DNA from: a virus
Lineage: Duplodnaviria > Caudoviricetes
Virus record (IMG/VR): IMGVR_UViG_3300037067_016777
Coordinates: 128,001 to 192,000 of that record
DNA length: 64,000 nucleotides
Direction: 5' to 3' (one strand)
Of this stretch, positions 9,830 to 14,846 are shown in pieces (positions within the stretch are counted from its first letter, which is position 1; each line of letters opens with the position of its first letter). The notes beneath the pieces are model-generated. The model saw only the letters and a program-made list of their open reading frames with translations. It had not been told where the DNA came from and made no database searches. The translations under genes and the position numbers were made by a program.

Positions 9830-10822
9830 CTATGCTACACCAAAATGGTGGTTTATTGAATGCATAATTCCAATATTGCCCTCGACTGCAGCAGAGAAGG
9901 CCGCATCCCAATATGGCGATAAAATTTTCCAGCTTAATGATTTCTCGATTCTTTGTCTATTGTCAGCGCCAACCTTTTGTCTTAAATCTTTATTTTCTAA
10001 TGAATATAGTTTCTTATTCATCTCTTCTACTACTGTTTTCTCTGGATTGACTGGAATGATCCAGTCTGGAGCTAAAATCATTCTTATCGAGCCAACGTCA
10101 GTGCTCACAACTGGAAGCCCACATGCACAAGCTTCTAGTACCACTCTAGGCATACACTCACTCAGGCTCGTCATAACTAGGACATTAATAGCATTGTAAA
10201 ATCGCAACATATGATCTAACGTTCTTTCTATAAAGAACTGCTTGCCATGCTGCGATTGTATTTCTACCTTGAAATCAAGTTGATCTAATAAATGCATTCT
10301 CTTAATATCATCTCGTCTACCAGCCCAACCGACAATTAAATTAGTGACATATCCATTACCCTTTTTTGATAATGACGGAATTGGTAGCCTCTCACCTGTA
10401 CATTTCCAATTCTTTTTTGTTTTCCATGTTGAAATTATTGGAACTTTTTTAATTGGCTTAAAAAATTCTGTATCTATGCCTTCTGGAAGGAATATCGTTG
10501 GACATGAATAGTGCGATTTACAAAAATCGAACGTTTGTGGAGAAATACCGACTGCGAGATCTAGATATGGGTATGGTTGTAAGTTTAATGTTGGCCCAGC
10601 GTGTCCCCCGATAACCTTTACTCCTGCGCGTTTAGCTTTTAAACACAATTCGAGCGCTTCAGGAGATATATCTGGCCCATGAATGTAGATCGCATCAAGA
10701 CCTTCTAATTTACATTCATTGTGCCGATAAATTGTGATCTGGTGTTTTGAGTATCTCTGTTGTTCTTTATCTAGGAAATAATATGCCCATCCAAACTGAT
10801 CAACAATTTTAGCTATTCTCAT
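9830..10822 (-). CDS. GT4-family glycosyltransferase
   Basis: SLSECMPRVVLEACACGLPVVSTDVG (EX7E), GIDTEFFKP. Confidence 0.88.
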   Translation of the reverse strand: MRIAKIVDQFGWAYYFLDKEQQRYSKHQITIYRHNECKLEGLDAIYIHGPDISPEALELCLKAKRAGVKVIGGHAGPTLNLQPYPYLDLAVGISPQTFDFCKSHYSCPTIFLPEGIDTEFFKPIKKVPIISTWKTKKNWKCTGERLPIPSLSKKGNGYVTNLIVGWAGRRDDIKRMHLLDQLDFKVEIQSQHGKQFFIERTLDHMLRFYNAINVLVMTSLSECMPRVVLEACACGLPVVSTDVGSIRMILAPDWIIPVNPEKTVVEEMNKKLYSLENKDLRQKVGADNRQRIEKSLSWKILSPYWDAAFSAAVEGNIGIMHSINHHFGVA

Positions 10823-10867: not shown

Positions 10868-11260
10868 CTAAAAAGAGATTGGTACTCTTAGTTCTTCTGG
10901 TAAATTGTCGCCTTCGCAATGCTCTGGATGCTCATTGAGATGATGCCAGCGACAAAGAACAATAAGATCTTCTTTCTTTTCACACCAAAGCCTAGTGTAA
11001 CGTAAATGGTGAACTTCTAAATCATGTTTTTCATCGCATCGTTGACATTTATGATTTGCATTACGCAGCGCTTGCCTGCGTCTGCACTTCCACCATTTTG
11101 TTTTTAGATATTCATTATATGGTAATTTTGGGTAGCATTTACCATTAATTGTTAATATTATTTTATGCCTTTTTGTCTGCCGAGTCTTCTCTCGTCTCTC
11201 TCGTTTTGCTCGCTTGCGTAAAATCTCAATGCGTTCATCTTCAGTAAGTTTAGTTGGCAT
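10868..11260 (-). CDS. HNH endonuclease with Arg/Lys-rich N-terminal helix
   Basis: YLKTKWW..RR...CQRC...LEVHHLRY...DLIVLCRWHH. Confidence 0.85.
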   Translation of the reverse strand: MPTKLTEDERIEILRKRAKRERREKTRQTKRHKIILTINGKCYPKLPYNEYLKTKWWKCRRRQALRNANHKCQRCDEKHDLEVHHLRYTRLWCEKKEDLIVLCRWHHLNEHPEHCEGDNLPEELRVPISF

Positions 11261-11261
11261 G

Positions 11262-11642
11262 ATGATCTAGATCAGGACCCTTTTCCCGGCAGGGATAGTG
11301 GCCAAACCTTAAAACAAACGCTCTTTTATCAGTACTCAATGACGTTAAAGTTGGAGTTCATGGAAGCCTTTTTATCCCCGCACGGCCCAGGTCATAGGGT
11401 TGGAGGTTGCCTGGAGTTTTTTAATGGCTTCTTACACTACCGCTGCGGCATCCTGTTCCGGTTCGTGCCGGTGCCGCTTTCCCGTCGCCAATCTGGTTGA
11501 AAGCATCATGGCTTGTACTTTTGACGCCTCATGACTCAACGCTCGGCTCGACTTTAACGAGAACCACGATGATTAGGTTCTATCACAGATCATTCTTGAT
11601 AAAAGCACGCGTGACAACTAAACTGCCAATTTATATTGTCAC
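11262..11642 (-). ncRNA. Putative large structured RNA directly upstream of the HNH gene
   Basis: No long ORF, raised GC, nested complementary pairs: 11323-31/11597-605, 11338-42/11590-94, 11343-51/11551-59, 11358-62/11530-34, 11363-68/11426-31, 11387-91/11410-14, 11445-50/11472-77, 11561-65/11576-80, 11611-17/11636-42. A G-U wobble favours the minus strand. Confidence 0.55.
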
Positions 11643-11660
11643 TAAGCAAGAAAGAACACG

Positions 11661-11793
11661 CTGAGATTGTCTATCATCCCCAGTGTGTTCAAAAGTCCAC
11701 ACTGAGATTGTCTATCATCCCCAGTGTGTTCAAAAGTCCACACTGAGATTGTCTATCATCCCCAGTGTGTTCAAAAGTCCACACTGGGGATGA
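11661..11793. repeat. Three perfect tandem 41-bp repeats ending in a 14-bp inverted repeat
   Basis: ctgagattgtctatcatccccagtgtgttcaaaagtccaca at 11661, 11702, 11743; final tcatccccagtgtg-N10-cacactggggatga. Confidence 0.95.
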
Positions 11794-12033
11794 CTGCGAC
11801 AGCTTTGAGATTAGGCTCGACAGATCTAACCGGTCAGTCTTTAGACATCAACGGCTGCGATCACTGTGTGAGATTTTGGATTTTTGGGATTAGGTGCTGC
11901 TTGACTTTTGACGTTTGTGACGGTAAATCTAACCGTAAAGACGGCTGCGATCATGTGTGTCTATTTGTCGTTAGTCGAAATTGAAATACATCTATCTACT
12001 CATTGAGATTGATCTCTGATTTATGTCAAGTGT

Positions 12034-12264
12034 TTAAAATCCGATCCTAGTACGGTTCTTATTGGTATGATGGCTTTTGTAATTTATCAATATCAACCAG
12101 CAATAGGTGGTCAGACTGCCAGTTATAAATCCAATTATGCCTTGAATGTATACTAGTGAGAAGTTAATTACCAGACTGCAAAGTAGACATAAAGATATAT
12201 ATAGTAACAGCTTTACCACTTCCTCTTCTGTAATTCGGCTGTGCATAGTATTCAAATACGCCAT
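12034..12264 (-). CDS. Small hypothetical membrane protein
   Basis: Two hydrophobic segments; start trimmed to MAYLNT to avoid overlap with dUTPase. Confidence 0.4.
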   Translation of the reverse strand: MAYLNTMHSRITEEEVVKLLLYISLCLLCSLVINFSLVYIQGIIGFITGSLTTYCWLILINYKSHHTNKNRTRIGF

Positions 12265-12310: not shown

Positions 12311-12736
12311 ATGCAAATAAAATTCCAGAAATTAGTCGATCGTGCCATAATCCCAACAAAGGCTACACCATTCGCTGCTGGGTTTGATATCGCTAGTATT
12401 GACACCTATGAAATCTGCCCTGGCGAATCCCATATCTTCCCTACTGGTTTAGCTGCCAGCATTGAAGAGGGATATTGTGTCGTCTTATTTGATCGGTCTG
12501 GGATGGGTGCGAAGAAGAACATGCATCGGCTTGCTGGTGTAATCGATAGTGATTATCGAGGGGAGTGGTTGATCTGTCTTGTGAATCTCAGCCGTGATAC
12601 TTATGTTATTCACGAAGGCGATAATATAATTCAGGGATTGGTAATTCCAGTACCCCAATTATCTATCGTCGAGGTGAATAATCTTGACGAGACGGATCGT
12701 GGTAATAAAGGTTTTGGAAGCTCTGATAAGCGCTAG
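12311..12736 (+). CDS. dut: Trimeric dUTPase
   Basis: AAGFDI, DRSGMG, GVIDSDYRGE, IIQG, RGNKGFGSS; start refined to MQIKFQKL. Confidence 0.95.
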   Translation: MQIKFQKLVDRAIIPTKATPFAAGFDIASIDTYEICPGESHIFPTGLAASIEEGYCVVLFDRSGMGAKKNMHRLAGVIDSDYRGEWLICLVNLSRDTYVIHEGDNIIQGLVIPVPQLSIVEVNNLDETDRGNKGFGSSDKR

Positions 12737-14449: not shown

Positions 14450-14846
14450 TAGTACAGACTCAGACTTTTGTTCAGATTCAGAGACGGTTAACAGTCCAGG
14501 TTCGAATCCTGGTCCCCGCACTTACGAAGAAAACACGCGGGGGTAGCCCAACGGCAGAGGCAAAGCCGCCCATCAATTTCAGACTATTACTACAGACTTA
14601 GCATTACGTCGAGGACCAAATCGAAGTCTCCAGCCAAATTGACCCCGTGGATGCCTGTGCAACTCAGGTCGGCCGCTCTTGGGCAGATTAATTAAGCGGT
14701 CGTCGTACAATCGAAGTACACATGGGTATAAGACTTAGGCTGTAGATTAAATGGAGATAGTTGGTCTGTGAATTCGACGCGTAAATTGCTTGCAACAATT
14801 TCACACAGCCCCGGTGGACCGGATATGTCCACTGGGGCGCTTTTTT
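14450..14846 (+). ncRNA. Putative ncRNA with two circularly permuted tRNA-like modules (YrlA-like topology) and CAGACU repeats
   Basis: Module 1 (14483-14570): T-arm ccagg-TTCGAAT-cctgg, 7-bp acceptor tccccgc/gcggggg, UA, D-arm gcc..GG..ggc. Module 2 (14644-14726): gcctg-TGCAACT-caggt, cggccgc/gcggtcg, gtac/gtac. Long enclosing stem 14601-32/14752-89. Confidence 0.8.
14808..14846 (+). terminator. Rho-independent terminator
   Basis: gccccggtggac-cggatat-gtccactggggc followed by gcTTTTTT. Confidence 0.85.

Follow-up and report, generated by a model that had tools for sequence, protein, structure and literature searches.

A predicted structured RNA ahead of a glycan-tailoring operon in uncultured jumbo phages, with a putative homing-type HNH gene inserted beside it

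Does a stretch of RNA-like structure that lies directly beside a small HNH nuclease gene in a giant phage belong to that nuclease, or does it have a role of its own? This question is raised by a locus in a window of 64,000 nt, the whole stretch of DNA that was analysed, which represents bases 128001–192000 of a 269,105-bp IMG/VR virus record judged to be 74% complete. From the size and completeness of the record, its source is an uncultured jumbo phage. The genetic code is standard, with long ORFs terminating at TAA, TAG and TGA. ORF maps, Pfam and alignments revealed a leftward operon on the minus strand, which ends at 10822. It contains nine genes assigned to glycan tailoring, including those for glycosyltransferases, a glycosyltransferase–radical SAM fusion, a sulfotransferase and methyltransferases, and its first gene encodes a GT4-type glycosyltransferase (9830–10822, minus strand). 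Next to it, an HNH ORF of 130 aa is located on the same strand (10868–11260). A gene-free region of about 1 kb was found beyond this ORF, followed by a rightward dUTPase gene with a probable start near 12311; the non-coding region is located between these divergent genes.

The sequence-only reading had described about 380 nt of nested RNA-like structure immediately upstream of the HNH gene. Both inverted pairs that it quoted, cttttatca/tgataaaag and cgttaaagt/actttaacg, are perfect and nested (11323–11331/11597–11605 and 11343–11351/11551–11559, respectively), and about 0.28 perfect 9-mer inverted pairs are estimated to occur by chance in 382 nt. The G+C content is 45–51% in the folded stretch versus 30–40% in its flanks. 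The MFE z-score of the stretch relative to shuffled sequences was −1.20 for the minus strand and +0.04 for the plus strand, and that of the core defined below was −1.41. Taken singly, the sequence thus gives weak evidence for structure, its folding energy being no better than that of shuffled sequence. The single-sequence MFE fold nevertheless matches the fold obtained by comparison almost exactly.

In order to compare the locus with related ones, five related phage records (G001–G005) were reached through the neighbouring DUF7873 protein. A DNA search of these records matched the window segment 11265–11613 at 80–83% identity in G002, G003 and G005. A covariance model, named R1, was built on the core of the structure, and a metagenome pattern scan added R1 copies in contigs L029, L030 and L032 as well as two partial copies. 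Including that of the window, which is the most divergent, six distinct R1 sequences with 82–95% identity were available. In the 14-helix fold, 99.5% of 645 alignment cells contained canonical pairs (alignment A4). Changes on both sides of a pair were found for 13 pairs in 7 of the 14 helices (H1, H2, H4, H7, H9 and H12 among others); the six distinct sequences come from one clade, and for 9 of the 14 helices informative changes are few or absent. When the pairing partners were slid by 1–3 columns, only 0–1 such pairs remained, and none of 500 shuffles reached the observed values. This comparison shows R1 to be a real, uncatalogued structured RNA of about 345 nt encoded on the minus strand (11268–11612). 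The nested structure proposed earlier was thus confirmed, with limits at approximately 11268–11612 rather than 11261–11642. The strand named for it, the minus strand, also proved correct, since the alignment contains 43 G·U cells and canonical pairing reaches 99.5% when the minus strand is read versus 93.0% for the plus strand, which indicates an RNA read leftwards.

The R1 core (11318–11610, minus strand), as delimited by the alignments and the covariance model, consists of 14 helices inside a 13-bp terminal helix. The terminal helix H1 (11597–11610 with 11318–11331) encloses H2 (11583–11589 with 11336–11342) and the H3 hairpin (11576–11581 with 11560–11565). The 9-bp helix H4 (11551–11559 with 11343–11351) encloses a four-way junction of three arms, namely H5–H8 (arm 1, 11487–11547), H9–H10 (arm 2, 11445–11477) and H11–H14 (arm 3, 11353–11440). 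Some of the junctions and loops are invariant in the alignment. In the L030 copy, 16 nt are inserted into the H1/H2 joiner (approximately L030:11640–11660, minus strand), apparently through local duplication, which shows that this joiner tolerates a change in length. Directly 5′ of R1, the fold and alignments show a hairpin (11611–11642, minus strand) that is found in this phage only; a different small hairpin occupies this place in G002. A pseudoknot between the H3 loop and the H1/H2 joiner was also considered, and is not claimed because it was compensatory in one relative and mismatched in others.

R1 is non-coding: all six frames are closed by stops, and the relatives differ from each other by 1-nt indels. 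With all three stop codons in use and every frame interrupted, an alternative genetic code and a hidden ORF at R1 were rejected. Nucleotide identity between the window and its relatives is 82–84% for R1, 74–77% for the GT4 gene and 72–81% for the dUTPase gene, while the spacers adjoining R1 cannot be aligned between the window and the relatives. This higher conservation next to unalignable spacers suggests that R1 is under selection.

The conservation extends beyond the core. According to the alignments, a 3′ extension (11268–11317, minus strand) consists of a variable linker of 20–28 nt and a 30-nt block (11268–11297) that is invariant among the relatives and occurs only together with R1. Within this block, positions 11289–11297 are complementary over 9 bp to an invariant core junction in arm 3 (11373–11381). 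This pairing is a candidate pseudoknot; both partners are invariant, so that it shows no covariation. Such a pseudoknot, if real, would account for the conservation of the tail.

R1 did not resemble any catalogued RNA. The Rfam scan that had been proposed as a check was performed and gave no match to HEARO or any other family, which leaves R1 undescribed. At the gathering score, no Rfam match was found in the whole window, and a search at E-values up to 10 of the locus, three relatives and the corresponding region of G001 gave only noise (miRNA and snoRNA models). ARAGORN predicted no tRNA or tmRNA genes in the whole window. The cobalamin riboswitch (RF00174) was considered on account of short junction look-alikes and the downstream radical SAM gene; at E-values up to 10 it had no match in the whole genome, although control genomes were matched.

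The R1 family is narrow and is confined to a small clade of uncultured jumbo phages. No R1 match was found through a DNA search of cultured phages, and two pattern scans of 185,579 bacterial and archaeal species did not reveal an R1 copy. The only addition from a GT4-based search was a fusion gene of 38% identity that lacks R1. Two further sets of candidates were discarded: the seven matches of a 17-mer pattern scan for R1 were all due to chance, and 19-mer matches in two high-GC contigs proved to be Walker-A coding sequence.

The identification of the neighbouring ORF as an HNH nuclease was upheld by a match to PHROG 119 at 1e-7 and by the presence of PF01844 in 20 of 24 aligned relatives, the ORF itself being below the Pfam reporting level. 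It has the pattern of the HNH superfamily, with a beta-beta-alpha-metal core of the form His-His...Asp/Asn...His and Cys/His zinc ligands, and residues C72, C75, H84, H85, D98, C103, H107 and H111 are invariant in the family alignment. A full HMMER search revealed about 12,000 distant HNH relatives, 288 of them at E ≤ 1e-10, most of which are 90–250 aa long and which occur in unrelated contexts. Word-seeded searches found no near relatives in viral contigs or in a set of 5.8 billion proteins. The profile matches in the PDB were to HNH domains in general, with weak ones to the HNH domain of IscB. The gene is present in a single copy in the genome, and its protein had no match in G001–G005 or in any fetched locus besides the window's own genome.

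These data bear directly on the partnership that the sequence-only reading had inferred, in which R1 and the 130-aa HNH protein would together make up a nuclease element guided or activated by the RNA, like a small counterpart of IscB with its omega-RNA. The two do lie on the same strand in immediate adjacency, with the start codon of the HNH gene only 8 nt past the conserved tail of R1, and the protein combines a basic N-terminal segment with an HNH core that weakly resembles that of IscB in profile searches. However, the structure occurs independently of HNH genes, in five other distinct R1 sequences, and no other R1-bearing contig contains the HNH gene; this is the outcome that the sequence-only reading had itself named as refuting. 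In the window, about 445 nt separate the R1 tail from the start of the GT4 gene, versus about 95–130 nt in G003, L029, L030 and G002, where the spacer is variable and AT-rich; the extra DNA of the window is the HNH ORF, an insertion of about 400 bp with clean borders (alignment A5). The protein itself also argues against the partnership: no RuvC was found through Pfam and there is no bridge-helix region, and the HNH family is huge and occurs in unrelated settings. A Lys/Arg-rich N-terminus was found in nearly every member, which makes the Arg-rich helix a family trait rather than a sign of RNA binding. Together with the lack of a match to HEARO or another Rfam family, these observations did not bear out an RNA-associated HNH element, which we now regard as highly improbable.

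A second way to link the two would be to take R1 as a self-splicing intron, of group I or of another kind, or as what remains of one, with the HNH gene as its homing endonuclease. Phage group I introns often carry HNH genes, which speaks for this reading, and R1 is of the right size. Nevertheless, neither a group I nor a group II model matched R1 even at E-values up to 10, and its helices are all nested, with the two ends of the RNA closing the fold, in place of the P3/P7 pseudoknot layout. Furthermore, no interrupted gene surrounds it, as the upstream flank is non-coding and the downstream GT4 start is intact, and the HNH gene lies outside the fold and is missing from the relatives. An intron origin thus seems scarcely credible.

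The layout of the HNH gene is instead that of a homing endonuclease gene, with presence or absence between syntenic relatives and clean insertion borders. By these comparisons it is shown to be a free-standing homing-type endonuclease gene that is found in this phage only and is unrelated to the function of the RNA; homing activity itself is predicted from the layout. The invariant tail DNA of R1 is a plausible recognition site of the enzyme in phages that lack the gene. Base 11272, which adjoins the insertion point, is A in the window and G in all relatives, and this G-to-A change could plausibly have served self-protection, that is, immunity of the target site. More generally, the insertion of a homing endonuclease gene next to a conserved RNA can produce an RNA-then-HNH layout by chance, which is a reason for caution in screens for miniature RNA-guided nucleases.

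Upstream of R1, the non-coding region has a regular organization. Read leftwards, it consists of an 18-nt motif, two CGCAG units, phage-specific tandem repeats, a third unit of a strong hairpin followed by GATAGAC, and R1. The 18-nt motif (11985–12003, minus strand), a candidate promoter or operator, is conserved in all seven phages at the upstream edge of the non-coding region and has a single occurrence in the genome. Two units composed of CGCAG, a small hairpin and TTAGAT are located on the minus strand within 11824–11953 (approximately 11927–11949, and 11824–11859), and a third, which starts at 11799, leads into the 41-nt repeats. All seven phages keep the CGCAG–hairpin units, even the two that lack R1, and within the 269-kb genome these units cluster at this place only. 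The tandem repeats were detected by TRF as 3.2 copies of a 41-nt unit with 98% identity (11657–11786, minus strand), each comprising a hairpin followed by GATAGAC. In the relatives, one hairpin with GATAGAC is found about 30 nt upstream of R1, and its stem sequence differs completely between phages. This suggests a conserved RNA hairpin signal. Clustered copies of GATAGAC occur only at this locus in the genome. The upstream motifs may be promoter, operator, RNA-processing or nut-like antitermination sites.

Small genes were also noted in this region. Three of the R1 phages contain, at the upstream end of the non-coding region, a 60-aa gene for a DksA/TraR-type C4 zinc-finger protein (PF01258, 3e-11) on the minus strand (L004:4317–4499, L029:8775–8957 and L030:12046–12228). 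Neither the window nor G002 contains this gene, so that it is not an obligate partner of R1. At the place where the relatives have this gene, the window contains a possible small ORF for a hydrophobic protein of 70 aa (12034–12246, minus strand) without a Pfam match. A longer version of 123 aa is unlikely because it would overlap the start of the dUTPase gene.

The non-coding region of about 1 kb, including R1, could also be a replication origin or protein-binding locus that acts at the DNA level, with the folds formed by single-stranded DNA or by a primer or R-loop RNA. Its position between divergent genes would suit such a role, as would the short repeated motifs found only here and the tandem repeats that differ between phages (three copies of 41 nt in the window, and short simple repeats in L029, G001 and G004). 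Compensatory changes and strand-specific G·U pairs, however, indicate selection on the pairing of one strand, which duplex DNA sites do not need. R1 itself is also free of iterons and has no linked initiator gene. We consider this explanation very unlikely.

It remains to compare two ways in which R1 could act as an RNA, beginning with its relation to the operon. The best reading, which we hold with slightly more belief than doubt, is that R1 is a new structured leader or 5′UTR-derived RNA of the glycan-tailoring operon, with a homing-type HNH gene beside it. A structured leader had been the fallback proposal for this locus, and it is preferred here. R1 is consistently co-directional with and upstream of the GT4 gene; in every contig that reaches that far, it lies about 95–170 nt upstream of the GT4 start. 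On this leader reading, transcription would run leftwards from the conserved upstream region of hairpins and motifs, and R1 would form the 5′ leader of the nine-gene operon. The R1 fold, with its 3′ tail docked into the core junction, would bind a ligand or a protein and would set how much transcription or translation enters the operon. In addition, R1 may accumulate as a 5′UTR-derived RNA. The narrower proposal that R1 is a 5′ leader that senses a ligand or protein and thereby controls the operon is evenly balanced in our judgement.

The elements that would connect such a leader with expression could not be recognized. No terminator/antiterminator pair and no pair sequestering the RBS was recognizable in the spacer between R1 and GT4, and a sigma-70 promoter scan gave background levels. 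In favour of a leader, no intrinsic terminator was recognized after R1, although the phage has a strong canonical one with a 12-bp G+C-rich stem and a T run (14808–14838, plus strand), which closes the DUF7873 unit and shows that classical terminators are employed by this phage.

Some of the observations fit another role of R1, that of a stand-alone, stable RNA acting in trans, for instance as a decoy, as a ribozyme or as the scaffold of an RNA-protein particle. It would then have a promoter and a 3′ end of its own and would be no more than a neighbour of the operon. The spacer between R1 and the GT4 gene is not conserved and no expression platform can be named in it, and an insertion of about 400 bp has been tolerated there, which an independent RNA gene would explain no less well than a leader. 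A promoter for the operon could be located in the AT-rich spacers. In addition, R1 is about 345 nt long, folds into 14 helices and contains junctions and loops that are invariant; it exceeds most riboswitch aptamers in size and intricacy and is as complex as ribozymes and particle RNAs. It is also enriched in G+C over the genome. Against an independent gene, no terminator lies behind R1, and its orientation and position relative to GT4 are always the same. No protein gene co-varies with R1 either, the TraR/DksA-type gene being present in only three R1 phages. The replacement of R1 by unrelated folded sequences in two of the relatives, as described below, likewise looks like an effect in cis. 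A stand-alone RNA is thus possible, though we doubt it.

The two phages concerned, G001 and G004, have the operon and the upstream motifs as in the window, yet they lack R1. The G001 genome is complete and is the closest one by DUF7873. The R1 model, applied with filters off to the corresponding slots of both phages, revealed no homology. The slot of G001 contains an unrelated G+C-rich element of about 350 nt (L002:4285–4720, minus strand; z-score −3.4 versus shuffles), which lies behind eight copies of an 8-mer tandem repeat and a strong hairpin and has no Rfam match. A scan with a 22-mer from this element matched G001 only and thus gave no comparative support. A third unrelated G+C-rich folded sequence occupies the slot of G004 (L005:2389–2829, minus strand; z-score −2.5). 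Note that G004 also has an extra ORF of 376 aa (L005:3159–4289, minus strand), which has no Pfam match, between its slot element and the dUTPase gene.

Among related phages, the slot of R1 seems to be open to different folded RNAs, and unrelated folded sequences in one slot ahead of one operon suggest a positional role in cis. The R1, G001 and G004 elements might even be alternative classes of a single switch or ribozyme that senses a ligand or protein and governs the operon; this is an unlikely proposal, which we put forward as a conjecture. If it is true, the folds would be interchangeable within a regulatory RNA system restricted to phages, and R1 would rank with the largest aptamers of this kind. 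It is rare for a complex RNA of more than 300 nt to combine many junctions with invariant loops, and the majority of those solved so far are riboswitches, ribozymes or scaffolds of particles. To these complex RNAs, R1 contributes a well-supported case that comes from uncultured giant phages and lies ahead of an unusual glycan-tailoring operon.

A comparison of the locus with known systems indicated partial similarity to several of them. Like HEARO or omega-RNA with IscB, it shows a structured RNA ahead of an ORF that contains an HNH, with both on one strand. The protein, however, has 130 aa versus approximately 400–500 aa with a split RuvC and an HNH in IscB, the HEARO model does not match, and R1 persists in relatives without the protein, the adjacency being a recent insertion. 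Free-standing HNH homing endonuclease genes occur in large lytic phages, namely the T4-type mob genes and similar ones. The HNH ORF of the window resembles them as a small ORF that is present or absent among syntenic relatives and is located in an intergenic region beside highly conserved sequence. It differs from them in that the conserved neighbour is an RNA gene or leader rather than a protein gene, and its homing is putative.

GOLLD and ROOL are large "ornate" orphan RNAs with Rfam families of their own, which are often found in phages and prophages and whose function is unknown. R1 is similar to them in being a large, multi-junction and highly conserved RNA carried by phages, but it matches neither model, is smaller, lies away from tRNA genes and is limited to one small clade. 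Riboswitch classes, such as SAM-I/II/III and preQ1, are known to replace one another upstream of orthologous genes. The slot elements of R1, G001 and G004 recall these interchangeable classes, their nearest precedent, as unrelated folded RNAs in one slot ahead of one operon in related genomes; this is an analogy only, since here the G001 and G004 elements are known from folding and no expression platform was found.

In the Pseudomonas jumbo phage 201phi2-1, eight 5′UTR-derived sRNAs have been mapped (PMC11512511), which counts in favour of the leader reading of R1. These sRNAs are shorter than 250 nt and are defined by transcript ends, with no covariation-supported fold reported (PMC11512511), whereas R1, of about 345 nt, was defined solely through covariation and does not resemble any catalogued RNA in sequence or by model. 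They are nevertheless similar to R1 in that, rather than being a separate terminator-bounded gene, each is a folded non-coding RNA that heads a co-directional operon of a giant phage (PMC11512511).
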